From a virus: a DNA stretch of 64,000 nucleotides. The notes beneath the pieces were generated by a model. That model saw only the letters and a program-made list of their open reading frames with translations, did not search any database and had not been told where the DNA came from. Numbering within the stretch: the stretch's first letter is position 1; every line of letters begins with the position of its first letter. The position numbers and the translations under genes were made by a program. Shown here piece after piece: positions 850 to 51,187 of the stretch. The stretch lies in the IMG/VR virus record IMGVR_UViG_3300027852_000040, positions 5,214 through 69,213 of that record; one strand, written 5' to 3'.

Positions 850-1437
850 ATGATTAATATGCATAACGTTAAAGCTATCTTTAATTTAGATTTAGAAGAT
901 TATATGGCATATAAAAGTTTAGAAGAAGGACATGTATATTTAGTAAATGAATTAGACAATGACTTAGTATATGGTAGTATTCTAAGTATGAATGAAATGG
1001 TAAGATTAGGTGTAACTAATATTACAATGCATATTAATTCAATTGGTGGATTTATATTTTCATCTTTTACATTATATGATTACATTAATCTAATTAAATG
1101 TAAGAATGGTATACATGTAACATCAGTGGTAGAGGGGGAGGCTTGCTCTGCAGCTTCTATGATAGTTATGCAGGCAGCGGATGAAAGATTGGCGTGTGAG
1201 AATTCTAGGATAATGATACACGAACCATATGAATTCATTGAAGGGGGACTAACGGTTACCAAGTATAAGGATAGAAGTAAAGAAATGGATACTGTTACAA
1301 AAATGGTAATGGATATATTAAGTGATAGATGTAATAAAACTTCTAAAGAAATAATGAAAGTAATAAAGAATACTGATGTCTTCATGCGACCAAGTGAGGC
1401 GTTGGAGTTTGGGATAATAGATGGAATTTTAAAGTGA
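850..1437 (+). CDS. clpP: ClpP-like serine protease
   Basis: INSIGG, ACSAAS (Ser), IMIHEP (His), DVFM (Asp), EALEFGIID. Confidence 0.9.
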   Translation: MINMHNVKAIFNLDLEDYMAYKSLEEGHVYLVNELDNDLVYGSILSMNEMVRLGVTNITMHINSIGGFIFSSFTLYDYINLIKCKNGIHVTSVVEGEACSAASMIVMQAADERLACENSRIMIHEPYEFIEGGLTVTKYKDRSKEMDTVTKMVMDILSDRCNKTSKEIMKVIKNTDVFMRPSEALEFGIIDGILK

Positions 1438-2552
1438 TTAAAGTGAATTTGAAAAAGGGAAATGAAAGTAAATCATCTCCACAATTAATACCCAAAAAAG
1501 TACTTGTTCGTGGTAAAGATGGGTCATATTATGCTATACGTTATGTTAGGTCTGGAAGTGAGGAAGATGGTGGGAAGCAGAATTTATCATCTATACCAAA
1601 TGTGAAGATAAAGGATTTATTAATATTAATTGGTGAAAGTAAATTAAATCAAAAACAATTACATGAGTTAGTTAGTCATGAAGATGAATATGTTAGAGAA
1701 CGAGTAGCAAGAAAAATTAATCAAAGTGGATTACATCAGATGATTAATGATGATGATGATGATGTTAGAAAAAGAGTAGCGGAAAGAATTAATCAAGCTG
1801 GACTTCAGTTAATAATGAATGATGAACATAGATATATTAGAGAAATTGCAATAAAACGAAATGATTTAATAAATAATATTAAATTTACAATTGATTCATA
1901 TGATAAGAATAAAGAAATTGAATTATCAAAATATATGAAAAATGAATTAAAAGATATTATTAAAAAAGATACACGTAGTGTGAGTATGATGAAATGTACA
2001 GATGAGTTTTATGGAAATGTTGATAATGGTAAATTTATTGATTTTCATATAGAATCTAAAAATGAATGGATATGGAGTTCATTTTCTGATTTAGCTTTAC
2101 TCTTAAAGGATTCAATAAAAAGACAATTTGGTTGCGAAATTAGACATTACTATGATATTAATGATTATGATGAAAAAGTTAATGAATTGTATAAAGTATA
2201 TAATAGAAAAGATGTAGATGAATATGTTAAAATGCAAAAGGATCTCACTAGAAAATATTTAGATGAAATGTTTCCTGATACTGATATTATTACATTATAT
2301 CGAGGTACACATAAAGATGAAATTGAAGATCTTAATGATGAGGATAAAAAAGTAATAGTTAAATCAAATCCTTTATCTTCTTGGACATTAGAAAAATATA
2401 TTGCTAAAGGATTTGGTGAAACTGGAGTTGTTTTAACTACAAAGGTACATAAGGATGATATATGGTCTACATTTATGAGCCATGCATATGATGGTGATGC
2501 GAGGGAAATTATAGTAATAGGCAATAAAGATAGAGAAGTGGATGTGATATGA
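1434..2552 (+). CDS. Leader + 3 helical repeats + ADP-ribosyltransferase-like domain (paralog 1)
   Basis: QLIPKKVLVRGKDGSYYAIRYV leader; 24-aa repeats; LYRG...LSSWT...DAREIIV. Confidence 0.75.
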   Translation: MIKVNLKKGNESKSSPQLIPKKVLVRGKDGSYYAIRYVRSGSEEDGGKQNLSSIPNVKIKDLLILIGESKLNQKQLHELVSHEDEYVRERVARKINQSGLHQMINDDDDDVRKRVAERINQAGLQLIMNDEHRYIREIAIKRNDLINNIKFTIDSYDKNKEIELSKYMKNELKDIIKKDTRSVSMMKCTDEFYGNVDNGKFIDFHIESKNEWIWSSFSDLALLLKDSIKRQFGCEIRHYYDINDYDEKVNELYKVYNRKDVDEYVKMQKDLTRKYLDEMFPDTDIITLYRGTHKDEIEDLNDEDKKVIVKSNPLSSWTLEKYIAKGFGETGVVLTTKVHKDDIWSTFMSHAYDGDAREIIVIGNKDREVDVI

Positions 2553-4243
2553 AAATGAATATAGAAAAGCAAAATGAAAATAAGTTATCAACAACATCAT
2601 CTCAACTAATACCCAAAAAAGTACTAGTTCGTGGTGATAATGGATCATATTATGCTATTAGATATGTTAGGTCTGGAGAGGAAGAGAAAGAGAATGTGAA
2701 TTTAAGGAACATTGATATAGCTAAATTATTATCGTTACTCGATAATAATAAATTAAATCAAAATCAATTACACGAATTAATTGATCATGAAATTGAATTT
2801 ATTAGAGAACGAATAGTTAAACATATTAATCAGATTGGTTTACATAAGATGATAAATGATGAAAGTAGAGTAATTAGAGAAAAAGTAGCAGAAAGAATTG
2901 ATCAAGTTGGTTTACATAAAATGATGAATGATAAAAGTGTACAGGTTAGACGAGATGTAGCTATGAGAATTAATCAAGTTGATTTACATAAGTTGATAAA
3001 TGATGAGGATGAAGTTAGAGAGATAGTGGTAAAAAGAATTGATCAATCTGGACTACATGAAATGATGAATGATGAAAGTATATATATTAGAGGATGTATA
3101 ACTGAAAGAATTAATCAAGTTGGTTTACATGAAATGATGTATGATAATAATGAATTTATTAGAAGAATAGTAACACATAGAATTGATCAGATTGGATTAC
3201 ATGAAATGATGAATGATAAAAGTGAGGAAGTTAGAAAGAGTGTAACAAAGAGAATTGATCAAATTGGTTTATATAAAATGATAAATGATAAAGATTATCA
3301 TGTTAGAGAAGGAGTAACATGTAAAATTAATCAAGCTGGACTTCATAAAATGATAAATGATGAAAAAGAATATGTTAGAAGTGGTGTAGTAAGGAGAATT
3401 AATCAAGATGGTTTACATAAGATGATAAATGATGAAAATGAAAATATTAGATCAGCTATAGTAAAAAGAATTGATCAAGTTGGATTAAATGAGATGAAGA
3501 ATGATAAGAGTGAGCAGGTAAGGGTAGAAATATTAAGTCGTGTAAGAGATATAAATAATATTAAATCTACAATTGATTCATATGATGATAATAAAGAAGT
3601 TGTATTATCAAATTATATGAAAGATGAATTAAAGTATGTTATGGAAAAAGATAAATCAAGTACAAATATGATAAAATTCACTAATGAGTTTTATAAAAAT
3701 ATTAATAATGGTAAATTTGATGAATTTCATGTAAGTTCAAAAGATGATTGGGAACGTAGTTCTTCTTCTGATTTAGCATTATTATTAAAAGATTCAATTA
3801 TGAGACAATTTGGTGGAGAAATTAGACATCATGATGCTGTTAGTGATTATGATAAAAAGGCTAATGAATTATATGACGATAATAATAAAAGTAATGTTGA
3901 TGAATACGTTAAAATTCAAAAAAATCTTACTAGAAAATATTTAGATCAAATGTTTCCTGATACTGATATTGTTACACTATATAGAGGTACCACTGAAAAT
4001 GAAATTCAAACTTTGGGTGATGATAATAAGATAATAGTTAAATCAAATCCTTTATCATCATGGACATTAAAAGAGAGTGTGGCTAATGATTTTAGTAAAC
4101 AAGAAAATAAAAATGGTATAGTTTTAACTACAAAAGTACACAAAGACGATATATGGTCAACATTTATGAGTCACGCATATGAAGGCAATGAAAGAGAAAT
4201 TTTATTAATAGGCAGTAAAGATAGAGAAGTGGATGTAATATGA
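2549..4243 (+). CDS. Leader + 11 helical repeats + ADP-ribosyltransferase-like domain (paralog 2)
   Basis: Same leader; I(D/N)QxGLHxMxND repeats; LYRG...LSSWT...NEREILL. Confidence 0.8.
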   Translation: MKMNIEKQNENKLSTTSSQLIPKKVLVRGDNGSYYAIRYVRSGEEEKENVNLRNIDIAKLLSLLDNNKLNQNQLHELIDHEIEFIRERIVKHINQIGLHKMINDESRVIREKVAERIDQVGLHKMMNDKSVQVRRDVAMRINQVDLHKLINDEDEVREIVVKRIDQSGLHEMMNDESIYIRGCITERINQVGLHEMMYDNNEFIRRIVTHRIDQIGLHEMMNDKSEEVRKSVTKRIDQIGLYKMINDKDYHVREGVTCKINQAGLHKMINDEKEYVRSGVVRRINQDGLHKMINDENENIRSAIVKRIDQVGLNEMKNDKSEQVRVEILSRVRDINNIKSTIDSYDDNKEVVLSNYMKDELKYVMEKDKSSTNMIKFTNEFYKNINNGKFDEFHVSSKDDWERSSSSDLALLLKDSIMRQFGGEIRHHDAVSDYDKKANELYDDNNKSNVDEYVKIQKNLTRKYLDQMFPDTDIVTLYRGTTENEIQTLGDDNKIIVKSNPLSSWTLKESVANDFSKQENKNGIVLTTKVHKDDIWSTFMSHAYEGNEREILLIGSKDREVDVI

Positions 4244-5646
4244 AAGTAAATATAGAAAAGCAAGGAGAAAGTAAGCCTCCCACATCTACACAATTAGTAC
4301 CTAAAAAAGTACTTGTTCGTGGTAATAATGGATCATATTATGCTATTAGATATGTTAGGTCTGGAAGTGAGGAAGGTAAGGGGAAATCAAATTTAGGTGA
4401 TATGGATTTAATGGAGTTACTAGAATTCCTTGAAGAAAATACATTAGATCAAACCCAATTACATGGATTAATTAATCATGAGGATCAATATATTAAAAAA
4501 TATGTAGCTGAACGAATCGATCAAAAAGGATTACATGAATTGATTAATAGTGATGATAATAATGTTAAACATATAATAGTGAAAAGAATCGATCAGGCTG
4601 GTTTACATGAGATGATGAATGAGAAAGATTGGCTTCTTAGAAGAAAGGTAGCGGAGAGAATTGATCGAGATGGACTTCGTGAAATGATGAATGATGAAAG
4701 TGAATTTGTTAGATCACAAGTTGTTGAAAGAATGAATCAAAAAGGACTTCATGACATGATGGGGGATAAAAGTAAAATAGTTAGGGAACATGTAGCGGAG
4801 AGAATTGATCAGGCTGGATTACATGAGATGATGAATGATGAGGAAGAAAGTGTTAGATTAGAGATAGCTAAAAGAATTGATCTAATTGGATTGAATAAGA
4901 TGAAAGATGATGAAGATGTATGTGTAAACGTTAAAGTATCACATCGTATAGAAGTTATAGATCGTACTCAATCTATGATTGACGCATATAAAAAGGATAA
5001 GAAAATTGTGCCAACGACGTGGATGACTGGTGAATTAACGCGTGTTATAGATGAAGAAGATGATAGTGTTAATATAATAGAGTGTACCAATGAATTCTAT
5101 ATGGACATTGCTGGTGGCAAATTTAGTGATTTTCATTTGAAATCAAAAGATGCGTGGGAGGATAGTTCATCAGCGGAGTTAGCTTTACTTTTAAAAGATT
5201 CAATAAAAAGGCAATTTGGTGGAGAAATAAGGCATCACGATGATGTTGATGATTATGATAAAAAAGCTAATGAATTATATAAAATACATAATATGAAAAA
5301 TGTTGATGAATATGTTAAAATTCAAAAGGATCTTACTCGTAAGTATTTAGATCAAATGTTTCCTGATACTGATATTATTACAATATATAGAGGTACTACT
5401 ATAATGGAAATTGAAAATTTAGATGACAATAGGAGTGTAATAGCAAAATCGAATCCTCTATCATCATGGACATTAAAAGAGAGTGTTGCTGATAGTTTTC
5501 GTAGATTTGAAGATGGTGGAGTTATTTTAACTACAGAAGTTCATAAAGATGAAATATGGTCAACATTCATGTGTCATGCATATCAAGGTTATGAGAGGGA
5601 AATCTTGTTAATAGGAAACAAAGATAGAAAGGTGAATGTAATATGA
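4240..5646 (+). CDS. Leader + 7 helical repeats + ADP-ribosyltransferase-like domain (paralog 3)
   Basis: Same leader; repeats; IYRG...LSSWT...YEREILL. Confidence 0.8.
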   Translation: MKVNIEKQGESKPPTSTQLVPKKVLVRGNNGSYYAIRYVRSGSEEGKGKSNLGDMDLMELLEFLEENTLDQTQLHGLINHEDQYIKKYVAERIDQKGLHELINSDDNNVKHIIVKRIDQAGLHEMMNEKDWLLRRKVAERIDRDGLREMMNDESEFVRSQVVERMNQKGLHDMMGDKSKIVREHVAERIDQAGLHEMMNDEEESVRLEIAKRIDLIGLNKMKDDEDVCVNVKVSHRIEVIDRTQSMIDAYKKDKKIVPTTWMTGELTRVIDEEDDSVNIIECTNEFYMDIAGGKFSDFHLKSKDAWEDSSSAELALLLKDSIKRQFGGEIRHHDDVDDYDKKANELYKIHNMKNVDEYVKIQKDLTRKYLDQMFPDTDIITIYRGTTIMEIENLDDNRSVIAKSNPLSSWTLKESVADSFRRFEDGGVILTTEVHKDEIWSTFMCHAYQGYEREILLIGNKDRKVNVI

Positions 5647-6158
5647 ACACATATAATACAAATGATGGGCATTTTCATAGATGTAAATGGCTAATAGATA
5701 GTGCTACAAATTCTAAAGGTAGCATTCTAGATGTGGGCACCAACGATGGTTTCATGTTTCGAGATAAATTAGATGAATTAGATGTAACGTTTTATGACAT
5801 CGAATTTAATTTTCCAGATTCATATAGGAATCAAATTAAATTTGTAAAAGGGAACGCTGAAAGTTTACCATTTAAAGATAAATCTTTTAACGCAATCATT
5901 GCTGGAGACATATTAGAACATGTAAATTATCCAGTAAAGGCATTAAAAGAATTTCATAGAGTTGGAGTGCAAACATTTATCACTGTACCAAATGAATATA
6001 ATTGGACTGATGAAAAGAGGCCGTTTGAAAATACCGGGCATGTTAGATTTTATGATGAGGAATTGGTAAGGGAGCATTTAAAGTTGGCTAATATATTCGA
6101 ATATGAAATACACATGATAGAAGGCGGAGGATGGTCCTTTTTTTGTGTACAGTTTTAA
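5643..6158 (+). CDS. Class I SAM-dependent methyltransferase
   Basis: ILDVGTNDG, GNAESLPFKDKSF, DILEHV. Confidence 0.85.
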   Translation: MNTYNTNDGHFHRCKWLIDSATNSKGSILDVGTNDGFMFRDKLDELDVTFYDIEFNFPDSYRNQIKFVKGNAESLPFKDKSFNAIIAGDILEHVNYPVKALKEFHRVGVQTFITVPNEYNWTDEKRPFENTGHVRFYDEELVREHLKLANIFEYEIHMIEGGGWSFFCVQF

Positions 6159-6814: not shown

Positions 6815-7477
6815 ATGATATACATGATTGATGAAGAAAAGACGTTTGAGTTATTTGGATATTATTCGTATGATTTAAAGTCGAAAAGTAACAAGAAAGT
6901 AGTTTGTATCTGTAATAATTGTGGGAAAGAGAGGATACTTAGATTGGTGGATTATCGTACTTTATGTAGGTCTTGCTCAAATAAAGGAAAACATCTTTCA
7001 GATAAAATAAAGTATAAATTAAGTAAATTATATAGTGGTAAAAATAATCCAATGTTTGGAAAGCATCATTCCACTAAAACTAAGCAAAAAATTAGTAATT
7101 CACTTAAGGGAAAATGTTGTGGAGAAAATCATCCAATGTTTGGGAAGATAGGAAAAGATAATCCAAATTTCGGAAAACACCGATCCATTAAAACTATAGA
7201 AAAATTAAGTAAAGTAAATATGGGAAAAAATAATCCAAATTATATAGACGGTAAAGGTAAAGAAAGAGTTAAAGCTAGACGAAGAAACTTTCTAGCTCCT
7301 AAATTCTTCTTAGGAGATAGATATTGTAAAGGATTAGTAGCTCACCATCTTACTGAAACAGTTATAATATACATTCCACTATATATACATAGAAAGAATT
7401 GGCACAATCTTAGAACAGGAAAAGGTATGAGAGAAATAAATGATTTATCTTTGAAGTTTTTACTAGAAGGATTTTAA
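6815..7477 (+). CDS. Zn-ribbon/NUMOD3/HNH-like homing-endonuclease-type protein (copy 1)
   Basis: CICNNCGKER; GKNNPMFGKHHS repeats; C-terminal AHHL...IH...H. Confidence 0.7.
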   Translation: MIYMIDEEKTFELFGYYSYDLKSKSNKKVVCICNNCGKERILRLVDYRTLCRSCSNKGKHLSDKIKYKLSKLYSGKNNPMFGKHHSTKTKQKISNSLKGKCCGENHPMFGKIGKDNPNFGKHRSIKTIEKLSKVNMGKNNPNYIDGKGKERVKARRRNFLAPKFFLGDRYCKGLVAHHLTETVIIYIPLYIHRKNWHNLRTGKGMREINDLSLKFLLEGF

Positions 7478-8466: not shown

Positions 8467-9507
8467 ATGACCAGTAAAATCAAAATAGCACTTATAGCAC
8501 CAGAATCTCTAACAGTCCCACCAAAGGATTATGGGGGAATAGAGGCGGTTGTGTATAATTTAGCTAAAGGATTAGAAGAATTGGGAAAAGATGTAACGGT
8601 TATTTGTAGAGAAGGGTCGACGTATGGTGGGAAGAAGATTATATCTGGTATAGAAGGTCCACACGGAGAAGATGGAATAAAAAATTACTTACATAATATG
8701 GGAGATTTGTCTGAGTTTGATGTTATTCATGATCATATGACAGGAGCGACTAAATGTAAGGTGTCATCTGAAAAGATACTCACAACACTACACTGGAACC
8801 ACACGGGACTGAGTGCTGGGTTCTATAACGTTAATTGTATATCTCATTCACAACGTAATTGGTTAATGAATGAATGGAAACGGGAATTTAAGCAAACTGA
8901 AGGTAAAGGTAAGATTAAAGACGCTCCAGTTGTACAACATGGATTAGATCCAAATGAATTTAGAATGAATGAAAATGTAAAGGATTATAATTTATACTTA
9001 AGTAAAGTGGCAAAATATAAAGGTGCAGATATATTAGTAGATTTGGTAAAATCAATGCCTAATGAGAACTTCGTGGTAGCAGGGTCAAATGGGGATTATA
9101 TGGGTATATTAAAGGAAGTTAGTAATAAGTATAATAACCTTAAATATGTGGGTGAAGTTTCTTATGAAGAGAAATTAGAGTTATATGCAAATGCTAAATT
9201 ATTCATATTTCCAACCGGTGGGTATGACCAGTTATGGAAAGAACCTTTTGGTATAGTAATGATAGAAGCAATGATGGCTGGTATACCTATTTTATCAACT
9301 AGAAATGGGGAAACTCCATATATAGTCAAAGATGGAATAAATGGATTTTTATGTGATAGTGTTAACGATTTTGTTAAGCACATAAATACAATAGAAGATG
9401 TTGATATGAGTAAGAAGAGTATACGAGAATATGGAATTAAGAACTTCAGTAATGTAAAAATGGCTAATGAGTACTATAAGTTATACGAAAAATTATTAGA
9501 AGAGTAA
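8467..9507 (+). CDS. GT4-family glycosyltransferase
   Basis: VPPKDYGGIE, EPFGIVMIEAM, GINGFL. Confidence 0.9.
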   Translation: MTSKIKIALIAPESLTVPPKDYGGIEAVVYNLAKGLEELGKDVTVICREGSTYGGKKIISGIEGPHGEDGIKNYLHNMGDLSEFDVIHDHMTGATKCKVSSEKILTTLHWNHTGLSAGFYNVNCISHSQRNWLMNEWKREFKQTEGKGKIKDAPVVQHGLDPNEFRMNENVKDYNLYLSKVAKYKGADILVDLVKSMPNENFVVAGSNGDYMGILKEVSNKYNNLKYVGEVSYEEKLELYANAKLFIFPTGGYDQLWKEPFGIVMIEAMMAGIPILSTRNGETPYIVKDGINGFLCDSVNDFVKHINTIEDVDMSKKSIREYGIKNFSNVKMANEYYKLYEKLLEE

Positions 9508-9511
9508 TAAA

Positions 9512-10249
9512 ATGATTGATGAAGAGAATACATTTGAATTATTCGGATATTATTCATATGATTTGAAGTCGAAAAGTAATAAGAAGATAGTTTGTATATG
9601 CAATGGATGTGGAAAAGAGAGGGTATTAGATAAAAGTGGTTATAGTGATTTATGTAAGTCTTGCTCAAAGAAAGGTGAAAATCATCACATGTATGGGAAG
9701 CATCACTCTAAAGAAGCACGTGAAAAGATGAGTAAGGCTCGTGATGGAAAGCATCATTCCATTGAAACTAAAGAGAAGTTAAGTAAGGCAGTAAGTGGAG
9801 CGAAAAATCCAATGTATGGAAGGAAAGGAAAAGATAATCCAAATTTTGGATCACATCGTTCATTTGAAACACTAGAAAAAATGAGTAAAGCACTTAAGGG
9901 AAAATATTGTGGAGAAAATAGTTCATTTTTTGGTAAACATCATACTAACGAATTTAAGGAAAAATTGAGTAAGGATAGAAAGGGAAAAAATAATCCAAAT
10001 TACATAGATGGAAAATGTGAAGTAAGAGATAGCGCAAGACGAAGAAACTTCCCAAAGCCTAAATTCTACTTAGGTGATAACTATTGTAAAGAAGAAAAGA
10101 ATGTATTCGTCGCTCATCATCTTACTAAAGAAGTTATAATATACATTCCAGAATATATACATAGAAAGAATCGTCATAGACTTAAAAGTGTAAAAAGTGT
10201 GAAAGAAATAAACAATTTATCTTTGAAATTTTTACTAGAAGGATTTTAA
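9512..10249 (+). CDS. Zn-ribbon/NUMOD3/HNH-like protein (copy 2)
   Basis: MIDEENTFELFGYYS start, NUMOD3 repeats, LSLKFLLEGF end shared with other copies. Confidence 0.7.
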   Translation: MIDEENTFELFGYYSYDLKSKSNKKIVCICNGCGKERVLDKSGYSDLCKSCSKKGENHHMYGKHHSKEAREKMSKARDGKHHSIETKEKLSKAVSGAKNPMYGRKGKDNPNFGSHRSFETLEKMSKALKGKYCGENSSFFGKHHTNEFKEKLSKDRKGKNNPNYIDGKCEVRDSARRRNFPKPKFYLGDNYCKEEKNVFVAHHLTKEVIIYIPEYIHRKNRHRLKSVKSVKEINNLSLKFLLEGF

Positions 10250-12221: not shown

Positions 12222-14390
12222 ATGTCGTTAAGAAGTAGGTTATCCAAACTAATTGTTTCCAGTCCTGATACCGTTACAGATGAAATTGGTGAGTTATCCG
12301 GGGAGGGAAATTTATCAACTTTACATCATCCAGTTTCATATGAATTTGCACGATTACTACACGACACATCTCCTATAATGAGAACTATTACATGGAACTT
12401 GAAGGAGAAGATGTTTAAGCGGGGAATAGAGGTTACACCATCATATGAATATAAGTGTGAGAATTGTGGAAAAGAGTATCAGGTGGATGTAGACGAGTGT
12501 GATTTGTGTAGTTCCACCAATCTTAAGAAATTTGATTCAATTAAATTTCAAGAAATAAGCAAATTATTATTAGATAGAAATGTCAATAAGCATGGAGAAA
12601 ACTTAGTAACAATATGTAAGAGATTAGAGGTTGACCTTGATATAGTAGATGAAGCATATTTATACACAAAGTTTGATTATATTATTGATGATGTAGGTAA
12701 TATAATACATAAAAAGTTGTCTAGCATCCACCGAATTCCACCATCTCATATTCATACATTGACACATATTGATCATAAGAAGAAATATAAAGTTTGCATT
12801 AAACATAGAGATACTTTATATGAGGGAAATGAAACTAAGTGTCCATTGTGTGGTAAAAAGTTATATCCATCATTATTCGCGTTTACTAAAACATCTATAC
12901 CAGTGGGTGGAATAACATCGATTACTAGGGGTGATACGTTTTTAATTGATGGAGAAATACACTTTTCTACTAAATATTCAGATGAAAAACATGGATTATC
13001 ACCAGTTGTTGCCGTGTGGAGAGATGTGTTAATCTTACAGTACATGAATCATTATATATACGATACATATAGATTAAAACGAACTCCTAGGGGTGTATTG
13101 GTTGTAAACACTGATAATGAGAGGTCATTTCACACTGCTTGGAAGAAGATTCAGGTAAAATTGAGAGAAGATCCATTATATGTACCAGCTATTACTGTTA
13201 GATCTGGTGATAGTAATAATCGTAAAAATTTAATGGAATTCGTTAAATTCATGGACTCAATTGATGAGATGAAGTTTCTGGAAATACGGGATGAGATTAG
13301 GCGGGAAATAGCATCCTTCTATGGTGTATCAAATGTTTTCTTAAATGATTATAAAGATGCCGGTGGGTTAAACGTTGAAACTACACAAATCTTAGTTACG
13401 GATTTAGCATTACAATCTTCACAGGGTGTGTTTAATGAAGTTATATTTAAATCTTTAATGTGTACACTTGGTTGTGATGATTTTAAACTTAGAATAAAAC
13501 CATCTGAAGTTGATACTGAATTATCAGAATTGAATTTAATAGCAAAGCGTGTAGATATAGCTGTGAGAATGGCACAGATGGGATATCCGTCACATTTGGT
13601 TGATACTAAGAGATTAATCTTTGACTTTGATAAAGAGCCACAGGATCCTAATCAGGGAATGATGGGTGGAATGCCGGGTATGGGAGCGATGCCGGGACAG
13701 GATCCAATGGAGGCTGGGAATACGTTTCCACCAGATGATATGGAAGAAGAAGATGTAAGTGAAGATGATATGAATGTAGTAAATAGTGATAGTGCTAATA
13801 TTGAACTACAAAAAGCTGATTATCAAACAATAACAGAAGAACTATTAGATGATATTACTTCTGGTAAAATTAATGTGGATAATGTTAGAGATGGATTAGA
13901 AGAAATGTTAACTAAGATATATGAAGGATCTAGGCCGATTAAAGATTTTCCTGGTATGGAATTGCCGTTAACTGATATTGATAAAAGGATTATTAGTGAG
14001 ATAATGGATAGCATACCTATACGAGAAGCGTCTTCAAATTTATCTTTATTATTAAGGATGTCTAAGGGTAAGGTTACTGATGAAATAAAGAATGCAACTA
14101 AACAGATAGTTAGAAACGAGAAACATAATATTGCCAATAAATCTTACGTAAATATCTATAAGCAAGTAGAAGAGAGGAGAGGGGAAAAGTTTAAATATAG
14201 ATGGGTTGGACCAAACGATAGTAGAAGTACTAAAAATTGTACTAATATTAAGAAAGAAGTTGGATTAGAGGGCGTAGAGATGGATAAATTGATTGAAATT
14301 GTTAGTAGGAATACTGATAAATCTTTACCATATAAAAGAGAACTTGAACCACATATTAGATGTAGACATAGGATAATAAGAGTAGTATAA
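12222..14390 (+). CDS. Portal protein with Zn-ribbon insertions and C-terminal MuF/SPP1 gp7-like domain
   Basis: GLSPV, TPRGVL, EIASFYGVS portal-like motifs; Gly/Met then acidic linker; KYRWVGPNDSRSTKNC...PHIRCRH MuF signature. Confidence 0.8.
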   Translation: MSLRSRLSKLIVSSPDTVTDEIGELSGEGNLSTLHHPVSYEFARLLHDTSPIMRTITWNLKEKMFKRGIEVTPSYEYKCENCGKEYQVDVDECDLCSSTNLKKFDSIKFQEISKLLLDRNVNKHGENLVTICKRLEVDLDIVDEAYLYTKFDYIIDDVGNIIHKKLSSIHRIPPSHIHTLTHIDHKKKYKVCIKHRDTLYEGNETKCPLCGKKLYPSLFAFTKTSIPVGGITSITRGDTFLIDGEIHFSTKYSDEKHGLSPVVAVWRDVLILQYMNHYIYDTYRLKRTPRGVLVVNTDNERSFHTAWKKIQVKLREDPLYVPAITVRSGDSNNRKNLMEFVKFMDSIDEMKFLEIRDEIRREIASFYGVSNVFLNDYKDAGGLNVETTQILVTDLALQSSQGVFNEVIFKSLMCTLGCDDFKLRIKPSEVDTELSELNLIAKRVDIAVRMAQMGYPSHLVDTKRLIFDFDKEPQDPNQGMMGGMPGMGAMPGQDPMEAGNTFPPDDMEEEDVSEDDMNVVNSDSANIELQKADYQTITEELLDDITSGKINVDNVRDGLEEMLTKIYEGSRPIKDFPGMELPLTDIDKRIISEIMDSIPIREASSNLSLLLRMSKGKVTDEIKNATKQIVRNEKHNIANKSYVNIYKQVEERRGEKFKYRWVGPNDSRSTKNCTNIKKEVGLEGVEMDKLIEIVSRNTDKSLPYKRELEPHIRCRHRIIRVV

Positions 14391-14847: not shown

Positions 14848-15550
14848 ATGATAGATGAAGATAAGACAGTTGAACGGTTTGGATATTATTCGTCGAATTT
14901 AAGTTTACATAGTAATAAGAAGATAGTTTGCATTTGCAATGATTGTGGAAAAGAGAGAGTGCTTTCTAAAAATGGTTATAGAGATCTTTGTCATTCTTGC
15001 TCAAAGAAAGGTGAAAATCATCATATGTTTGGTAAAACTCATATAATAGAAACTAAGAAAAAGATTAGTGAAACTCGTAAGGGAAAATGTTGTGGGGAAA
15101 ACAACCCAATGTTTGGTAAAACTCATTCATTAGATACAATTAAAGAAATGATTAAAGTTAAGAAAGGTGAAAATAATCCAATGTTTGGTAAACATCATTC
15201 AGTAGAAGTTAGAAGTAGAATAAGTGAATTAAATAAAGGTAAAACTCACTCAATAGAAACTAAATTAAAATTAAGTAAATCTAGAATTGGAAAAAAATAA
15301 TCCAAATTATATTGATGGAAGAGGAAAGGAAAGAGATGTAGCAAAAAGTGATGGTCGGCCAGTACCAGAACTCTTTTTAGGCAACAAATATAATGGTAAA
15401 ATAAAAATGGACGGACACCACTTTAATGAAAAAATTATAATATATATTCCAACGAGTTTACATCAAAAATATCGACACAATCTTAGAACTGGTAAAGGTA
15501 TGAAGGAGATAAATACTTTAGCATTTAAATTTCTAATAGGAAAACTTTAA
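14848..15550 (+). pseudogene. Zn-ribbon/NUMOD3/HNH-like gene (copy 3), split by +1 A in homopolymer
   Basis: GG-A7-TAATCCA at about 15289-15304 versus GG-A6-TAATCCA in copy 1; the two ORFs together give the full family architecture. Confidence 0.7.
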
Positions 15551-15689: not shown

Positions 15690-17162
15690 ATGAATATAAA
15701 AAAATCCTTTGATATAACTGGAAAAATCGAAACTTTAATTTGTGGAGAAGGAGACCTACCGACTGTTATAGGTGGTTACGCTTCATTGAATACGGTAGAT
15801 AAAGAGTCTCATATATTAACTTTAAATGCACTCAAAAACGCAACAGCTAAATTTTTATCAAATTCAAATTTTTGTAATCTTATGTATGAACATTCATCTA
15901 TTCAAATTGGCCAAATTGTACCAGAATATAATGTTAATGGTAAGACTTACACTACACATGTAGATGAAAAGGGATTATTTGTTGTAGGTATATTGAGAAC
16001 AGATTCAGATAAGGTAAATGAAGTTAGAAAACTTATTAAAAGTAAAGAATTAGGCGCCTTCTCTATTCGTGGTAAAGCTTCTAATGTTACTCCAATTATT
16101 GAAAACGGAATAGTATGTTTAAGTATCGATGAATTAGAATTACTAGAAGTAACAGCCTGTAAAAATGGAAAGCATCCTGATGCTGGATTTGAAGTATTGA
16201 AAGGTATTGATGTTAATGAAAATAATGATGACAATAAAAATTGGATGGTAGGTAGCATGGATATTTATAAAAACAATGAAACTAATGAAGTATATATAGA
16301 TGGTGATGAGAGTAATAGTAATGCGATTTTTATTAGAGATATAATTAAAACGTTAGATTTATCTAAAGGTAGTGAAGTTCATTTTAATGAGAGACTAAAA
16401 GATCTATTAAAATTAGAAGATAATGGATTAGAAAAGGTGGATATTAGTTTAAATAATGTTATAAAAAATAAAGATAGTGAATCGATTAATTCAATAACGG
16501 TAAAAGAATTAGTTAAATCAATATCTGATCAATTAATGGAAAACAGTGAACCAATAGACACCATAGACATAACAGATTTAACTAAATCAATATCCAATCA
16601 ATTAAAAGAAGATCTAAAAGATACATTATCAATAAAAGGAATAAATGATAAAGATGGGAAAGAAGGGAAAGAGGAAGTCAAAGGAGAAACTGAGGAAGAA
16701 GAGACGCAGGAAGGAGAAGCAGGACGGGACAATAAGATAAAGAAAATAGATTATGAGTTTGATGAAAAAGAGAAACAAGCTGCTAGAAAGTCAAATAAAC
16801 TAATAAAAGGCTGTTCAACTACTTTCGGTATAGCTAAAGGAAAAGTGTATATACATCAAGGTGAACAGGCACCGAAAGGGTCAAGTGTTGGTGTTGGTCC
16901 TAGAGGTGGAAAGTATTATGAGTCTACTGGTGATAAGAAAGATGGATTGAAATATGTTGACACTGGATCATTTAAGATGACTGGGTCGGCGCATGTCGAA
17001 CTTCCTAAAGTTGAGCGTGTTATTAATGATAATAAGGATAAAGATGAAAGTGAGATATTAAAAATTGTTAAGAAGTTTATTAATGAAAATTATACAGGTC
17101 ATTTACAAGATCAATTAATGGAAAATGTTAATAAATTAATTGATAAAAATATAAATGACTAA
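15690..17162 (+). CDS. Prohead protease (HK97-type) with long C-terminal extension
   Basis: IGGYAS, MYEHSSIQIG (His), GAFSIRG (Ser), LLEVT; between portal and MCP. Confidence 0.85.
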   Translation: MNIKKSFDITGKIETLICGEGDLPTVIGGYASLNTVDKESHILTLNALKNATAKFLSNSNFCNLMYEHSSIQIGQIVPEYNVNGKTYTTHVDEKGLFVVGILRTDSDKVNEVRKLIKSKELGAFSIRGKASNVTPIIENGIVCLSIDELELLEVTACKNGKHPDAGFEVLKGIDVNENNDDNKNWMVGSMDIYKNNETNEVYIDGDESNSNAIFIRDIIKTLDLSKGSEVHFNERLKDLLKLEDNGLEKVDISLNNVIKNKDSESINSITVKELVKSISDQLMENSEPIDTIDITDLTKSISNQLKEDLKDTLSIKGINDKDGKEGKEEVKGETEEEETQEGEAGRDNKIKKIDYEFDEKEKQAARKSNKLIKGCSTTFGIAKGKVYIHQGEQAPKGSSVGVGPRGGKYYESTGDKKDGLKYVDTGSFKMTGSAHVELPKVERVINDNKDKDESEILKIVKKFINENYTGHLQDQLMENVNKLIDKNIND

Positions 17163-17688: not shown

Positions 17689-18822
17689 ATGACTAGACAA
17701 GTTATAAGAACAATGAAAGAAATGGAATTAGTGTATTATGGTACACCTGGTTCTATAGAAATTGCAAAATCAGATGATCCATATGGTACTGGTACTACAG
17801 GAATATATTCTATTCTATATGGAGCAAAGGTTTGGTCACAGTTGAATCAGGAAGCAAATATCTTTGCTGCATTACCAAAGATTCCTTGGGATCATTCTGG
17901 GTTCAGGGTGATGACTGCTAGACCTGGTGCCGTGGGTACTGGATTGGATGGTGGTGTTGCTGAGGATGGTACTTTGCCTGAAACTACAAAGGGAACATTT
18001 GCTGAAGTATACCAGAAACCAAAACTTGTTGCACATAATTTTGATGTGAATGAGATGATGATGGAACTTGCAGGTAAAGATGATACGATTGGTGATCCTT
18101 TAGCAGTAGGTAAAGAGGAAACTGGTAAACATCACATAGAGATGATGAATAGGATGTTACTTAGAGATGTAGATGATGTAGGTACAGCAAGTTCAACAGA
18201 TGCACAGGCTAGAGTAATTGAAAGTATTGATAGGGTAATATCTGGATATGCTGAGAAAGATATAGTATCAGATGAGTCTGATGTGGATATTTATAATTTA
18301 GATAGACACACTGCGGCTACAAACTATGATTCATATATAGATGAGAATGATGATGTAGATAGAGAGTTAACTTTAACAATGATAGATTCTGCGTTTACAG
18401 CAATGCAAGAAAGAGGTGGGACGCCGAAAATAATTGTAACAGGATACGATACTATAGCAAGAATACAGCAGTTAGCAAGATCAGAAAGACGTATAGTGTC
18501 AGAGAGAGCAGTTGTGCCAACATACAATGGAATAAAAGGACTACCTGGAATTGACGGTGGATTTGTTGTATCGTTCTGGAATGGTGTACCGATTATACCT
18601 TCAAAGGATGTTACTAAAGATACTCTATCAAGAATATACTTCATAGACACAGATTATCTGAAAATTAAAGTACTCAAACCAACGCAATACTTCGAAGCAG
18701 GAATTAAAACAGGAAACCCATTCGCGATCAATAAGTTCGCACAGGAAGGAATGTATAGAACAATGGCTGAATTAATTTGTACTTTCCCACGGGCACAGGC
18801 GAAGATACGAGATCTGCAGTGA
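17689..18822 (+). CDS. Major capsid protein (HK97 fold)
   Basis: Size and position; YGAKVWSQLNQEANIFAALPKIPWDHSGFRV resembles (from recall) archaeal tailed-virus MCPs; FWNGVPII. Confidence 0.85.
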   Translation: MTRQVIRTMKEMELVYYGTPGSIEIAKSDDPYGTGTTGIYSILYGAKVWSQLNQEANIFAALPKIPWDHSGFRVMTARPGAVGTGLDGGVAEDGTLPETTKGTFAEVYQKPKLVAHNFDVNEMMMELAGKDDTIGDPLAVGKEETGKHHIEMMNRMLLRDVDDVGTASSTDAQARVIESIDRVISGYAEKDIVSDESDVDIYNLDRHTAATNYDSYIDENDDVDRELTLTMIDSAFTAMQERGGTPKIIVTGYDTIARIQQLARSERRIVSERAVVPTYNGIKGLPGIDGGFVVSFWNGVPIIPSKDVTKDTLSRIYFIDTDYLKIKVLKPTQYFEAGIKTGNPFAINKFAQEGMYRTMAELICTFPRAQAKIRDLQ

Positions 18823-19513: not shown

Positions 19514-20074
19514 ATGATAAAAATGATAGATGAGAAGAAAACTCATGAAAAATTCGGATATTATTCATCGGATTTGTCGACTAAAAGTGGTAAAAAGATA
19601 GTCTGTATTTGCAATGAGTGTGGAAAAGAGCGGATAATTTTTAAACATGGCTATCGTGATTTATGTATATCTTGTAGTAGGAGTGGAAAAAATCATCCAA
19701 TGCATGGAAAACATCATTCTACTGACTCACGTGAAAAAATGAGTAAATCAAAGATGGGGGCAAATAATCCAATGTTTGGGAAACGTGGTTATTGGTTTGG
19801 TATAACTGATGAAAATAGTCCACATTACATAGATGGAAAGTGGATAGAACGTAGTGACGCTAAACGTAGAGGATTTCCAAAACTAGAACACTTTTTAGGC
19901 AATAAGTATAATGATAAATATAAAATGGTAAGTCATCACTTTAATGAAAAAATTATCATCTATATACCAGAACGTTTACACCAAAAATATAGACATAATC
20001 TTAAAACTGGAAAAGGTATGTTGAAGATAAATAAGTTAGCATTTAAATTTCTATTAAAAGGAACTATATCTTAA
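19514..20074 (+). CDS. Zn-ribbon/NUMOD3/HNH-like protein (copy 4)
   Basis: CICNECGKER, NUMOD3 motifs, SHHFNEKIIIYIP...HQKYRH. Confidence 0.7.
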   Translation: MIKMIDEKKTHEKFGYYSSDLSTKSGKKIVCICNECGKERIIFKHGYRDLCISCSRSGKNHPMHGKHHSTDSREKMSKSKMGANNPMFGKRGYWFGITDENSPHYIDGKWIERSDAKRRGFPKLEHFLGNKYNDKYKMVSHHFNEKIIIYIPERLHQKYRHNLKTGKGMLKINKLAFKFLLKGTIS

Positions 20075-20119: not shown

Positions 20120-21313
20120 ATGATAATTTTCATAGTCAGTCAAGGTCCATTTCCAAGTCCTCAAATAAGTGGATTAGCTAGAGTAAGCACTGATATTGCT
20201 AAATCTTTAATAAAAGATGATCAAAATGAAATATATTACTTTACCTTTGGGTATAAGGAAAATAATAAACCAATCGTCACTGTACCAGAAGTCGTAAATG
20301 GTATAACGGTAATAGATTCCCGATTACTATTAGATTATCTAGTCAAATTTAATCCACATATCTTAATCACAGTGGGGGAAAATTGGATGTTTAACGATTT
20401 ATTAAAAGTACACGATAGGTTTCCATACACAAATTGGATTCATTATGTGCCATTAGATTCTTGTTACACTCCTCAAACTGATATAAATGAATTTATAAAG
20501 TTGGTGGATATATTAGTAGTACCTACTCCTAATGCTCAAAAAGTTTATACTGATCATGGCATACCAGCAATAAATATCCCTCATAGTGTGAATATAAAAG
20601 ATTTCTATAGATACGAAGATGATAAGAGATTGGTAGTAGCTAAAAAATTAGGTATAAATTCCAATAAATTCATAGTTGGATATAATGGTAGATTTCAGGA
20701 AAGAAAAAATTTACTAGATTTAATATTTGCATGGAGTAAATTTATTAACATAGTTGGAGAAGATAACGTAAATCTAGTCATGCTTACTAATCCTGATGAT
20801 AGTGAAGGTGATTTTAATCTTATTGAAGTGGTAAATAAATTAGAAATTAGTAATAGTGTACTTATATCACAAGGAGATGATAGAATAACAGATAATGAAT
20901 TAAATGATTTCTATAACACATTAGACATTTACATATCTACTTCATTAGCGGAAGGATTTAATTTACCAGTATTAGAAGCATTATCAACTGGAGTTACACC
21001 AATTTTAACAGATAATGTACCACATGTATATTTATTATCACATTTAAGTGAAGATATTAGAAGTAAATTTTTAATTAAATCCAGTAAACCATTTGTAACT
21101 CCAGTGGGAACTACATGGATTAAGCCAGATTTTAATGATATAGTTGATAGATTTATTTATGCATATCATCACAAAGATGTATTAAAGCAATTAATTACAC
21201 AAAATATAGAATTTGCTAGAAAACATGATATAAATGAAATTGGACAGATATGGAGAAATTTGACAAATAACTACTTAACAATTAGCAATGAAATATTTGA
21301 GGAGTTAATGTAA
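20120..21313 (+). CDS. GT4-family glycosyltransferase
   Basis: GRFQERKN, YISTSLAEGFNLPVLEA. Confidence 0.9.
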   Translation: MIIFIVSQGPFPSPQISGLARVSTDIAKSLIKDDQNEIYYFTFGYKENNKPIVTVPEVVNGITVIDSRLLLDYLVKFNPHILITVGENWMFNDLLKVHDRFPYTNWIHYVPLDSCYTPQTDINEFIKLVDILVVPTPNAQKVYTDHGIPAINIPHSVNIKDFYRYEDDKRLVVAKKLGINSNKFIVGYNGRFQERKNLLDLIFAWSKFINIVGEDNVNLVMLTNPDDSEGDFNLIEVVNKLEISNSVLISQGDDRITDNELNDFYNTLDIYISTSLAEGFNLPVLEALSTGVTPILTDNVPHVYLLSHLSEDIRSKFLIKSSKPFVTPVGTTWIKPDFNDIVDRFIYAYHHKDVLKQLITQNIEFARKHDINEIGQIWRNLTNNYLTISNEIFEELM

Positions 21314-22408
21314 ATGTTAAATGATACAAATAAAACTACTACATTTCCAAAAATAGCAGTTTTATCTTCTTGGAATGAATCATGTGGAATTGCGTCATAT
21401 TCAAAAAATTTATATTCATATATGAATGCTAATATTAAGATATTTTCTGAATTAACTAATAGATCAGATGGAATGAGTATACCATGTTGGTCACGTGGAA
21501 AATTGTTAGATAAGGCGGCAAAGTGCATATTAAAGTTTAATCCTGATGTTATTATAATTGAATATGAACCGGGATTATTTCAACATATTAAGTATTTGCA
21601 ACCAATATTAGACTTAAATATTCCAGTGATATCGAATTATCATTTAATGAATAAACAATTGGGTGAAGAATTGGTTAATAATAAATTTGCCGGTGCATTT
21701 ATTCATCATAATAATTGGATGAAATATATAGATGGTGAAGATTTACCATACATCTTTAATGTTCCACATGGATGTGAGATTGCATATAAGTTTAATGGTA
21801 TTGATAAATTAAAATCGTTTCTTGGTTGGGATCTAAATAAATTTCATATAGTAACATTAGGGTACATATCACCTAGAAAGATGACATTAGAAAATGTGAA
21901 ATTGATAAAAAATCTTAAACGTCATAATAAGGAAATAGTTTATCACATATTTGGTGGATCACAGAATGTTAGAAGTAGATATTGGGTAAATGATAGGCGA
22001 TATATGAGAACAATATTAATGCAAACGAAAAATGATCCAAAATTTGATATTAATTTTAACGAATTAAATGTAGACAATATACACATGATAGCTGCAGCAG
22101 CTGATTTATTACTATTCAATGGTGGGGAAATTAATTGGAAATCAGTATCAGGTATAGCACAATATACGTTTACATATAAGAAGCCATCTTTATTATCTTC
22201 AACTACATTATTTGATGAATTTAATAACACAAATTCATTTAAATTTACACATTTAGGTACATCTGAAATTGAATTTGCATTTGATAATTATGACTATTTT
22301 GAAAAGAAGTTTAGAGGTACTTTAAATGATTCATATTATATTAAGAAATATGACATATTAAGTAATAATAAATTGGCATTGATTTGTAAAATAATAGATG
22401 AATATTAA
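21314..22408 (+). CDS. GT-B fold glycosyltransferase
   Basis: SSWNESCGIASYS, VPHG, GYISPRK. Confidence 0.75.
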   Translation: MLNDTNKTTTFPKIAVLSSWNESCGIASYSKNLYSYMNANIKIFSELTNRSDGMSIPCWSRGKLLDKAAKCILKFNPDVIIIEYEPGLFQHIKYLQPILDLNIPVISNYHLMNKQLGEELVNNKFAGAFIHHNNWMKYIDGEDLPYIFNVPHGCEIAYKFNGIDKLKSFLGWDLNKFHIVTLGYISPRKMTLENVKLIKNLKRHNKEIVYHIFGGSQNVRSRYWVNDRRYMRTILMQTKNDPKFDINFNELNVDNIHMIAAAADLLLFNGGEINWKSVSGIAQYTFTYKKPSLLSSTTLFDEFNNTNSFKFTHLGTSEIEFAFDNYDYFEKKFRGTLNDSYYIKKYDILSNNKLALICKIIDEY

Positions 22409-22428
22409 TAAAATGGAGCACATATAAA

Positions 22429-23115
22429 ATGACATTTAATGGATATAATGACAAGTATTTCAGTGATGGAATATACGGTAATTATAATACACAAATATGG
22501 ATGCCGGTTTATGATGTAATGGCTGCTATTGGTAAGATAACTAATGCTAATAATGCATTAGACATTGGGGCGGCTACTGGTCACTTTACTGATGGTGGAT
22601 TAGAGGCTGGTATTAATGTAATTGGAGTAGATATTAGTGAATGGGCAGTTAATCATCCTATAACTGAAAGACTGAAAGATAAGTTAATAGTTGGTGATAT
22701 TACTAAAGGTTTACCATTTGAAGATAATTCATTTGATTTAGTATATTCATTCGATTTAATGGAACATATTTATATTGAAGATATGTATAAGACTTTTAGT
22801 GAAATAGTGAGAGTATCAAATAAATATATTATACTACTTATATCACAATCTTTTGATGTATTACGGAGAGATGCTTATACTGTAATGAAAGACGAAATTA
22901 TAACAGATCCATCTGGACATGTTACAGTTCAGCCGCCGATTTGGTGGTATAAGTTTTTTATGGATTTTAATGATTCTAATTGTAAAGTAAAACTTAGAAT
23001 GGATTTGGAGTGTAAATTTAGAACTTTAATTAGTCATATGTATTTACAAAATTGGACATTCTTGGTGGTATTAGAGAAAGTATTAGAAGATAAAAGTATA
23101 AAATTGGAGGAATGA
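22429..23115 (+). CDS. Class I SAM-dependent methyltransferase
   Basis: LDIGAATG, GVDISEWA, LPFEDNSFDLV, MEHI. Confidence 0.85.
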   Translation: MTFNGYNDKYFSDGIYGNYNTQIWMPVYDVMAAIGKITNANNALDIGAATGHFTDGGLEAGINVIGVDISEWAVNHPITERLKDKLIVGDITKGLPFEDNSFDLVYSFDLMEHIYIEDMYKTFSEIVRVSNKYIILLISQSFDVLRRDAYTVMKDEIITDPSGHVTVQPPIWWYKFFMDFNDSNCKVKLRMDLECKFRTLISHMYLQNWTFLVVLEKVLEDKSIKLEE

Positions 23116-23120
23116 TATAA

Positions 23121-23276
23121 ATGGCATATAGTGTAGATAGCACAGATTTAGTAGTATGGACAGATATTGATAGTACATTGGAGACAAAACTAGGTACATT
23201 GTCAATTACAACATTACATGATATAGAAATAGTACCAGTAGGCTGTAAGTATATAGCAGTAATAGTATATGAATAG
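23121..23276 (+). CDS. Small 51-aa protein (not in ORF track)
   Basis: MAYSVDSTDLVVW...AVIVYE*; GGAGG upstream; fills the gap between neighbours. Confidence 0.6.
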   Translation: MAYSVDSTDLVVWTDIDSTLETKLGTLSITTLHDIEIVPVGCKYIAVIVYE

Positions 23277-23288
23277 GAGTAATAGTAA

Positions 23289-44252: not shown

Positions 44253-44280
44253 TCGTACAAATGCTCCTTTTAACTTTTTA

Positions 44281-44325
44281 TTATAAATAATATATATACA
44301 TTTAATCATACTTCAATCTTTTGTG
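44281..44325 (-). promoter_or_regulatory. Leftward promoter repeat
   Basis: CAAAAGATTGAAGTATGATTAAATGTATATATATT on - strand. Confidence 0.65.
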
Positions 44326-51168: not shown

Positions 51169-51187
51169 TTTTATGTTACTCCTATAT

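Follow-up and report, generated by a model that had tools for sequence, protein, structure and literature searches.

Repeats of the LRV family (PF01816) are known in structure from an Azotobacter vinelandii protein (1LRV), in which they follow a small Fe-S domain; we know of no function for them. In the artificial alphaRep proteins, a constant two-helix scaffold carries variable positions 18, 19, 22, 23, 26 (and 30) on one helix, and parts of the published description state that these positions were picked since natural repeats vary there, that the number of units is variable, and that the variable positions form the binding surface in solved complexes (PMC3754942). Alt, an ADP-ribosyltransferase (ART) of bacteriophage T4, is described in passages of three papers as packaged through a propeptide that targets it to the prohead and is cleaved, then ejected with the DNA to modify host proteins (PMC5512222, PMC9026906, PMC9503650); according to the last of these sources, ART genes of phages are frequently located together with head genes and their products are packaged. 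Here we compare with these systems a family of five paralogous genes, A to E, in a 64,000-nucleotide (nt) window, the whole stretch of DNA that was analyzed, of the IMG/VR virus record IMGVR_UViG_3300027852_000040 (69,213 nt in full, 83% complete). All coordinates are those of the window. A search of the whole record yielded exactly five copies of the gene, each encoding a leader, a tandem array of 24-residue LRV units, and a C-terminal DRAT-like ART domain. The family most likely consists of host-modifying effectors which, by analogy with relatives, are possibly delivered in the capsid, as Alt is. The five genes and their parts are as follows.

1434-2552, + strand: gene A, 372 residues; leader, 3 LRV units (1644-1859), and DRAT-like ART domain (1860-2552)
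2499-2501, + strand: A356 of gene A, where the sequence of the E-x-E site reads A-R-E
2549-4243, + strand: gene B, 564 residues; leader (2549-2752) and 11 LRV units (2753-3541)
3542-4243, + strand: C-terminal part of gene B; helical subdomain and DRAT-like ART domain
3983-3985, 4058-4060, and 4190-4198, + strand: motif residues R479, S504, and E548/E550 of gene B, respectively
4240-5646, + strand: gene C, 468 residues; leader, 7 LRV units (4444-4947), and DRAT-like ART domain (4948-5646)
5389-5391, 5464-5466, and 5593-5601, + strand: motif residues R384, S409, and E452/E454 of gene C, respectively
45150-46277, - strand: gene D, 375 residues; leader (46056-46277), 3 LRV units (45840-46055), and DRAT-like ART domain (45150-45839)
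46603-48120, - strand: gene E, 505 residues; leader (47896-48120), 8 LRV units (47320-47895), and DRAT-like ART domain (46603-47319)

Domain architecture of the five paralogs

The leader common to the five proteins is a conserved segment of approximately 70 residues with a predicted beta-hairpin (PKKVLVRGxxGSYYAIRYV). At the other end, beyond the solenoid and a helical subdomain, all five terminate in a DRAT-like ART domain (PF07357) of approximately 230 residues, which was absent from the initial annotation of this DNA and which defines what the repeat arrays are for. Against the gathering cutoff of 25 bits for the Pfam DRAT family, the proteins encoded by genes A, B, and C scored 33, 28.9, and 30 bits, respectively, and PF07357 was taken from precomputed annotation for D and E. 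At these scores (29-33 bits), the alignment to DRAT spans positions ∼86-250 of the 256 in the profile. In an alignment of 27 sequences (the five paralogs and 22 short relatives), R148 and G149 of the YRG motif and S173 of NPLSSW are invariant and E218 is nearly so. The E-x-E site is E-R-E in four of the five paralogs (B, C, D, and E) and A-R-E in A. An Arg, a Ser in an STS-like motif, and E-x-E or Q-x-E are what we take to be the catalytic residues of the R-S-E clade of ARTs. The catalytic residues of this clade are also given in section 9 of PMC5512222.

Because the full-length gene B model matched solenoid proteins alone in Foldseek, the ART domain was modeled separately, with a pLDDT of 93.9. 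The 16 best entries in a VIA-align comparison with this model were all of the ART fold (Z of 6.2-4.4, 137-163 residues aligned); 15 of them were R-S-E mono-ARTs (ART-ARH toxin, Vis, iota-like, C2-I, VIP2, Certhrax, C3, ART2.2, SpvB, HopU1, and ExoS), and the other was the ART-like domain of anthrax lethal factor. On the basis of motif, profile, and predicted fold, the domain appears to be an R-S-E-clade mono-ADP-ribosyltransferase and is presumably active as an enzyme. Over the 10 paralog pairs, the ART domains exhibit synonymous divergence (dS) of 0.36-0.79 and a ratio of nonsynonymous to synonymous divergence (dN/dS, omega) of 0.36-0.55, indicative of purifying selection, so all five copies have been kept by selection. 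No DraG/ARG or macro partner was found among the window open reading frames (ORFs) scanned with PHROGs or Pfam.

The initial annotation had suggested that the repeats form an LRV/HEAT-like two-helix solenoid, and the profile and modeling results agree with it. The array is well outside chance expectation: the family profile matched the solved LRV protein 1LRV with an E value of 3.1e-22, and the artificial alphaRep binders were weak matches. Individual Pfam models were at the edge of detection for LRV, which exceeded its cutoff in gene C only (22.1 versus 21.6 bits), while HEAT exceeded its own in gene B (41.3 versus 23.5 bits). An AlphaFold2 model of gene B, computed on an 18-sequence alignment, had a mean pLDDT of 82, with most of the array above 90, residues ∼231-290 at 84-88, and the first 49 residues below 50. 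Each modeled unit comprises a short helix (positions 3-8) and a long helix (positions 15-24), and Foldseek ranked 1lrv first for this model (E value of 4.9e-7, TM score of 0.69 on the target), with alphaRep, PP2A-A, and other solenoids among the further matches. The array is thus predicted to be a solenoid of LRV units with alternating short and long helices.

Variability and exchange of the repeat units

The 24-residue repeats that had been placed at 2750-3540 are real and lie in the frame of gene B, where 11 tandem LRV units occupy residues 69-331 (2753-3541). The count of 32 repeats given with them holds for the five paralogs together (3, 11, 7, 3, and 8 units in A, B, C, D, and E, respectively) and not for gene B, which has 11. 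The earlier consensus and all five of its example strings were located among the 32 units: SRVIREK in B2, SVQVRRD in B3, SIYIRGC in B5, DYHVREG in B8, and DWLLRRK in C3. Tandem Repeats Finder (TRF) reported the 72-nt period at 2825-3505 (9.5 copies, 71% matches, score of 438) and further 72-nt arrays at 1658-1845, 4458-4841, and 47337-47824. The spacing of the anchor residues is 24 in 26 of 27 intervals, the sole departure being unit 4 of gene B, with 23 residues. TRF periods of 144 and 216 raised the possibility of a higher-order repeat, which was rejected: mean identities at lags 1-6 in B were 0.70-0.74, with none preferred.

Per-position entropies over the 32 units bear out the claim of a constant scaffold with variable residues in the second helix. 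The lowest values were those of L6 (0.20 bits), Q3 (0.67), R18 (0.84), I1 (0.87), G5 (0.97), V21 (1.07), and M9 (1.08), and every member of the scaffold set (I1, Q3, G5, L6, H7, M9, N11, D12, V17, R18, V21, and R24) was at or below 1.54 bits. The highest were those of positions 20, 16, 19, 4, and 23 (3.72, 3.60, 3.26, 2.99, and 2.82 bits, respectively), with 15 residue types each at positions 16 and 20. The profile was reproduced, with a Spearman coefficient of 0.85, in 36 full-length units from nine relatives outside the window, which were chosen with a hidden Markov model (HMM) made from the window units, a selection that favors the conserved scaffold.

Positions 16, 19, 20, and 23 share one face of the long helix. 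They correspond to i, i+3, i+4, and i+7, fall at helical-wheel angles of 200-300 degrees, and oppose the hydrophobic V17/V21/R24 side. The helical moment of the entropy was 0.36, a value equaled in 30 of 10,000 permutations, and the variable residues are therefore gathered on one face, as had been proposed, rather than scattered.

The initial annotation had further proposed that the 72-nt units recombine within and between paralogs to change specificity. The 32 units of the window have a mean pairwise nucleotide identity of 64% and a maximum of 0.85, the identity within genes (0.66) is close to that between genes (0.63), and the longest exact tract common to two arrays is at most 25 nt. By these measures of identity and shared tracts, the window units bear no trace of having been exchanged recently. 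The first units A1, B1, C1, and E1 cluster by position. At the other end, B11 and C7, both of them last units, are mutually among the closest and appear cap-like.

A different picture emerged from a sister clade of homologues (loci L018-L022). Between two of its proteins, P0010 and P0011, amino acid identity is 92-100% in sequence windows that lie beyond the array and drops to 33-37% within it, and their dS is 0.10 for the N-terminal part, 0.86 for the array plus cap, and 0.22 for the C-terminal part. An array dS of 0.86 together with an omega of 0.35 indicates exchange with a divergent donor, not selection on point mutations. For a third protein, P0014, the leader is closest to those of P0010 and P0011 (nucleotide identity of 0.93-0.95), and the ART loop and C-terminal part are closest to P0008 (0.85-0.91). 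We conclude from these incongruent nearest neighbors, segment by segment, and from the array divergence that the array block has been exchanged between lineages. The proposal of recombination is thus upheld for array blocks between homologues in the sister clade and fails for single 72-nt units in this genome. The sister clade also contains a second mosaic block, the ART loop after (Y/H)RGT (alignment columns 375-404), which has two allelic forms that assort independently of leader and array; judged from sequence, this loop may be part of the substrate-facing surface.

Variation within the sample was also considered. Contigs of the one sequencing run listed with this DNA, which is probably its source sample, tile positions 1400-5700 with 0 differences. 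Four joints inside the B array were seen at a depth of 3-11, with sides of 24-41 nt and, where given, foreign letters between the sides; these look like other LRV genes of the sample, not clean repeat-number variants. On a second contig (43,054 nt), gene A is identical save for its start residue, so that contig yields no population variation.

Relatives, a short tag, and the genomic setting

The LRV-DRAT architecture was found in 13 non-self proteins, at 38-55% identity. Gene C had no tblastn match in 50,697 GenBank phage records. Of two scans of viral contigs, the one based on patterns of the five paralogs returned 326 pattern matches, none of them a relative, and the one based on the 18-sequence family alignment returned 8 loci. 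With a profile of the C-terminal domain, 196 representatives were obtained at E ≤1e-3 among 1.84 billion proteins, many of them long (up to 7,059 residues with 11 matched stretches). Among 36 relatives scanned with Pfam, DRAT was detected in 18 at E ≤1e-5, and the partner domains included S-AdoMet lyase, GNAT, methyltransferase, topoisomerase IB, DUF192, poly(A) polymerase-HD, and LRV; the partners in head modules and giant proteins also include zeta toxin, RelA/SpoT, and metallopeptidase modules. Several DRAT-like domains may occur in one virus, with seven, four, and three matches in genomes G003, G005, and G004, respectively. Protein P0050 has ∼20 LRV units flanked by two ART-like domains, and locus L014 contains three to four tandem DRAT-like paralogs with non-LRV N-terminal regions. 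The order of domains in P0026 is tag-LRV-GNAT, tag-ART, tag-LRV-DRAT, a layout from which it follows that LRV arms serve two kinds of protein-modifying domain.

The tag in P0026, which is also present in P0021 and P0023, is a segment of ∼35 residues with the consensus KAKVYVKNPxxAPxGxKVxxGPxGGxYYES. In loci L010 and L011, an LRV-DRAT gene is situated after an S78/XkdF prohead protease and ahead of the capsid gene, and the tag stands at the start of each of the neighboring zincin-like, RelA_SpoT, and Zeta_toxin proteins; the relatives in L010, L011, and L014 all have the prohead protease on one side and the major capsid protein on the other. Several modules are fused to the protease in L011, forming a 1,237-residue protein with the tag at every junction, and elsewhere the tag connects the portal to a MuF-like domain. 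In P0021 and P0023, an N-terminal region that resembles the L010/L011 protease by eye is fused to the DRAT module, and Pfam found no protease family in either protein. The tag also occurs in the cultivated haloarchaeal virus HVTV-1 (locus L024), in the head-module proteins gp115 ("zeta toxin") and gp116. On its sequence distribution, the tag looks like a cargo-loading or cleavage tag; we met no description of it in the literature examined. The portal-tag-MuF-like ORF of L010 (2-2794 of that locus) has a LAGLIDADG-like insert near its N-terminal part, possibly an intein, as noted by eye from the translation.

In the window, the tag is found in an XkdF/S78-like prohead protease. The resemblance of the leaders of the five paralogs to the tag is limited to nine columns (VRGxxGSYY versus EEGPxGGYYY), and no homology of the two was detected with the tag HMM, a half-tag HMM, or hhalign. 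Complex prediction with the capsid protein, residues 1-180 of the protease, and residues 1-68 of the leader gave a score of 0.00, which is evidence neither way. The genes next to the paralogs and those of the head module are listed here.

850-1437, + strand: ClpP-type serine protease gene, a candidate head-maturation protease, directly upstream of A-B-C
5643-6158, + strand: Methyltransf_11 gene (Pfam), whose start overlaps the gene C stop by 4 nt
12222-14390: portal gene
15690-17162, + strand: XkdF/S78-like prohead protease with an acidic linker, between portal and major capsid protein
16836-16934, + strand: tag in this protease (residues 383-415; tag HMM E value of 4e-11)
17689-18822: major capsid protein gene
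44588-44658, - strand: single tRNA-Gly (TCC), just downstream of the E-ORF103-D-RecU operon

The ClpP-type protease matched the head maturation protease family phrog_94 (E value of 2.2e-26) and CLP_protease (2.6e-28). Successive 4-nt overlaps run through protease, A, B, C, and methyltransferase, with the start of A lying on the stop of the ClpP-like gene, and A, B, and C are by this arrangement predicted to be translationally coupled to the protease gene. They sit 6.6 kb upstream of the portal gene. Genes D and E adjoin a gene for a RecU-like resolvase and a GTP cyclohydrolase gene. A methyltransferase recurs in the relative P0047 (1,020 residues), in which Methyltransf_11 and a DRAT-like domain are in one protein, a hint of a functional link.

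By its gene content and sequence matches, the genome is that of a marine archaeal tailed virus. The window gene set includes portal, major capsid protein, terminase, tail tube, tape measure, and a family-B polymerase, as well as an anaerobic ribonucleotide reductase and 7-deazaguanine genes. Among GenBank phages, the capsid protein matched the haloarchaeal Druskaviridae HVTV-1 and HCTV-1 (34-35% identity), and the remaining matches were viruses assigned to Methanofastidiosa and Methanomassiliicoccales, so that 11 of 11 records were archaeal viruses; the best matches of the polymerase were likewise haloarchaeal viruses. The sole sequencing run listed with this DNA is labeled marine metagenome, and no RNA run is listed. 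Part of PMC8651126 describes the HVTV-1 capsid clade as dominated by marine archaeal viruses.

Further features of the window were recorded as follows.

6815-7477, 9512-10249, 14848-15300, 19514-20074, 57577-58164, and 60554-61147: NUMOD3-motif genes
8467-9507 and 20120-24173: glycosyltransferase and methyltransferase genes in the structural module, between capsid and tail genes
25617-25922: 54-, 108-, and 162-nt tandem repeats in the ORF at 24804-26759, which encodes a Laminin_G_3 (concanavalin-like) protein
31563-33932, + strand: tail-region protein with at least five LVIVD beta-propeller repeats (E value of 1.2e-53) and 147/294-nt tandem repeats
42588-44309, - strand: 573-residue protein with a Topo VI-A/Spo11 Toprim domain (E value of 1.1e-10), unusual for a virus
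48341-53588, - strand: 7-deazaguanine gene set, suggestive of modified DNA

The NUMOD3-motif genes, at least six in number and likely to encode homing endonucleases, are dispersed between essential genes; two more such ORFs lie in the first 5.2 kb of the record, and several share an N-terminal CxxC...CxxC region. The 7-deazaguanine set comprises a GTP cyclohydrolase I with an N-terminal HNH/zinc-like extension, a glutamine amidotransferase-QueC fusion, DUF1599, QueE, and QueD/PTPS, and no transglycosylase (DpdA/TGT) was noted in general PHROGs and Pfam scans of the window ORFs. The LVIVD-repeat protein is probably a receptor-binding protein, and the glycosyltransferases within the structural module may glycosylate the virion.

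Function of the arrays and comparison with known systems

We give an even chance to the reading that the five LRV-armed ARTs are host-takeover or counter-defense enzymes, with targets picked by the variable stripe of the solenoid, and that they are probably loaded into the capsid. The ART domain would transfer ADP-ribose from NAD+ onto a host protein, with arginine as the probable acceptor on the basis of the E-x-E motif. The solenoid would act as a recruitment arm in which the constant residues build the rod and the exposed stripe (positions 16, 19, 20, and 23 on the long helices and position 4 on the short ones) is the partner-binding surface. As the stripe differs from unit to unit and from paralog to paralog, each of the five enzymes could have its own target, or they could act on variants of a single one. 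Loading into the capsid and delivery with the DNA, as for T4 Alt, is suggested by analogy with the relatives, whose protease fusions and tag shared with head modules point to a possible virion-delivered enzyme. The arrays would have diversified by old duplication of units followed by divergence and, in related viruses, also by recombinational replacement of the array block.

Several results weigh against this reading. A variable face is by itself ordinary for solenoid repeats, variation of an exposed face is also expected from neutral drift under structural constraint alone, and the assignment to one face was made by helical wheel. For the ART domain, the best Foldseek match was the Vis toxin at an E value of 8.1e-3, and the VIA-align Z scores were at most 6.2, both weak in absolute terms. 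Genes D and E are located among replication and nucleotide-metabolism genes, outside the head module. Neither the tag HMM nor the half-tag HMM found a match in the five leaders, and hhalign gave a probability of 1.6% over nine columns. The proportions of nonsynonymous and synonymous differences (pN and pS) at the variable codons were 0.63 and 0.50, versus 0.69 and 0.56 for random codon pairs of these genes, and the array omega of 0.35 for P0010 and P0011 is not above 1. The variable codons are thus indistinguishable from random pairs, which makes dN/dS uninformative for the 32 units, and the diversifying selection (dN/dS >1) considered in the initial annotation found no support in either the saturated unit values or the sister-clade array.

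The codon comparison and an omega below 1 in the sole informative comparison fit as well with the array being a structural spacer or rod that has no specific partner (serving size, solubility, capsid packing, or passage through the tail channel), in which case the exposed positions would drift neutrally and the substrate would be chosen by the ART domain or the helical subdomain alone. The free variation in unit number, from 3-11 here to ∼20 in P0050, and the occurrence of the same ART domain with non-LRV N-terminal regions in L014 agree with such a role. We nevertheless consider it somewhat unlikely: the array block is what near-identical genes exchange, which is hard to explain if it is inert, five paralogs are under purifying selection within a 69-kb genome, and LRV arms precede both GNAT and ART in P0026, as expected for a recruitment module. 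It is less probable again that all of the arrays bind one partner, whether a component of the viral head or a conserved hub of the host, through the scaffold residues Q3, H7, D12, R18, and R24, so that the variable residues would be irrelevant and the paralogs would differ in dose or timing rather than specificity. The conserved polar and charged positions (Q3 in 28, R18 in 27, H7 in 24, and R24 in 24 of the 32 units), their conservation in the 36 units of the relatives (R18 in 36 of 36), and the split of the paralogs between two operons are in accord with a common partner, but the same polar residues are conserved in the non-viral 1LRV alignment (VR..VA.R) and so are probably structural, and the unit number differs at least 3-fold among the paralogs.

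Because the solenoid is regular and each tandem unit has a few positions of the specificity type, it also recalls the TALE, PUF, and PPR proteins; in that case, every unit of the array would recognize one monomer of a DNA, RNA, or peptide chain through a residue code. The per-repeat code raised in the initial annotation did not survive inspection of the residues: the quadruplets at positions 16/19/20/23 are distinct in 32 of 32 units, there are 30 pair types at positions 19-20, and no small alphabet recurs. The B, C, and E arrays are moreover slightly acidic (pI of 5.6-6.5, net charge of -3 to -8), which is unfavorable for binding nucleic acids, and we judge such reading to be very improbable. 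Localized hypervariability within a viral gene could likewise be the product of dedicated mutagenesis, such as by a diversity-generating retroelement, but we assign this explanation almost no weight: no reverse transcriptase was found in 61 ORFs compared with PHROGs or 72 with Pfam (only RNase H, in a record that is 83% complete), and there is no near-identical template/variable pair, the maximum unit identity being 85%.

Returning to the host-directed, LRV-steered ARTs, a wider extension of that reading can be put forward only tentatively. Archaeal tailed viruses, marine and haloarchaeal, might load changeable effector modules by way of the common short tag, including a programmable arginine-ART steered by LRV units; with similar reserve, the stripe and the unit number might be reshuffled as cassettes between viruses, with GNAT as the steered domain in some relatives. 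If this is true, nature would have provided, in the five paralogs, a panel of protein-modifying enzymes with changed targets, and no virion-delivered ART system would have been described for archaea before this one. Should the arrays direct the enzyme, they would make a compact natural "binder plus modifier" whose specificity can be changed by swapping repeat cassettes, which would interest protein engineers given that the units of alphaRep and DARPin are longer than those of LRV. The presence of the tag in the cultivable HVTV-1 offers a testable handle on the loading of capsid cargo in archaeal tailed viruses. To our knowledge, host takeover and ADP-ribosylation in archaeal viruses have hardly been studied. 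A passage in the archaeal tailed virus literature counts an ART among the metabolic genes of HVTV-1 and HCTV-5. The LRV-ART effector family of archaeal viruses appears to be undescribed: by title and abstract, no LRV/HEAT-ART fusion was found in the literature, although supplements may list such architectures. What is new here is the way in which the domains are combined, the growth of the family to five members, the cargo tag held in common, and the occurrence in an archaeal virus.

Of the known systems, the T4 enzymes Alt, ModA, and ModB offer a parallel in that several paralogous R-S-E mono-ARTs are encoded by one virus, as are the five paralogs here, which have a conserved leader and three of which are coupled to a protease gene. 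The family described here differs in matching Pfam DRAT by sequence rather than the Alt/VIP2 families and in having an LRV solenoid arm and an archaeal host; its packaging is proposed by analogy. With it, the head-packaged ART effectors that are known from T4 and predicted in many bacteriophages would come to include members from archaeal viruses. DraT belongs to the closest Pfam family (PF07357) and has the R-S-ExE residues in common, but no nitrogenase context was found in the PHROGs and Pfam scans of the window, and the viral domain is a distant relative and not a DraT orthologue. The relatives that mix a DRAT-like domain with many effector modules resemble the polyvalent proteins of phages and conjugative elements of Iyer et al. 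(2017, PMC5512222) and follow the pattern of head-packaged bacteriophage effectors (PMC5512222, PMC9503650), whereas the genes of the window encode single-effector proteins; the main text of that paper contains 0 occurrences of DraT, HEAT, or LRV, and the portion of it considered here does not report an R-S-ExE DRAT-like ART in polyvalent proteins, such as was found in this work. The Azotobacter vinelandii protein 1LRV is the best structural match to the array and has the same 24-residue units (VR..VA.R...L..L), but its repeats are not joined to an ART. The alphaRep proteins are the exact analogue of the "natural binder library" to which the initial annotation had likened the repeats: binding through the variable face has been demonstrated for their artificial 31-residue units (parts of PMC3754942), and the 24-residue viral units would bind their partners in a comparable manner.

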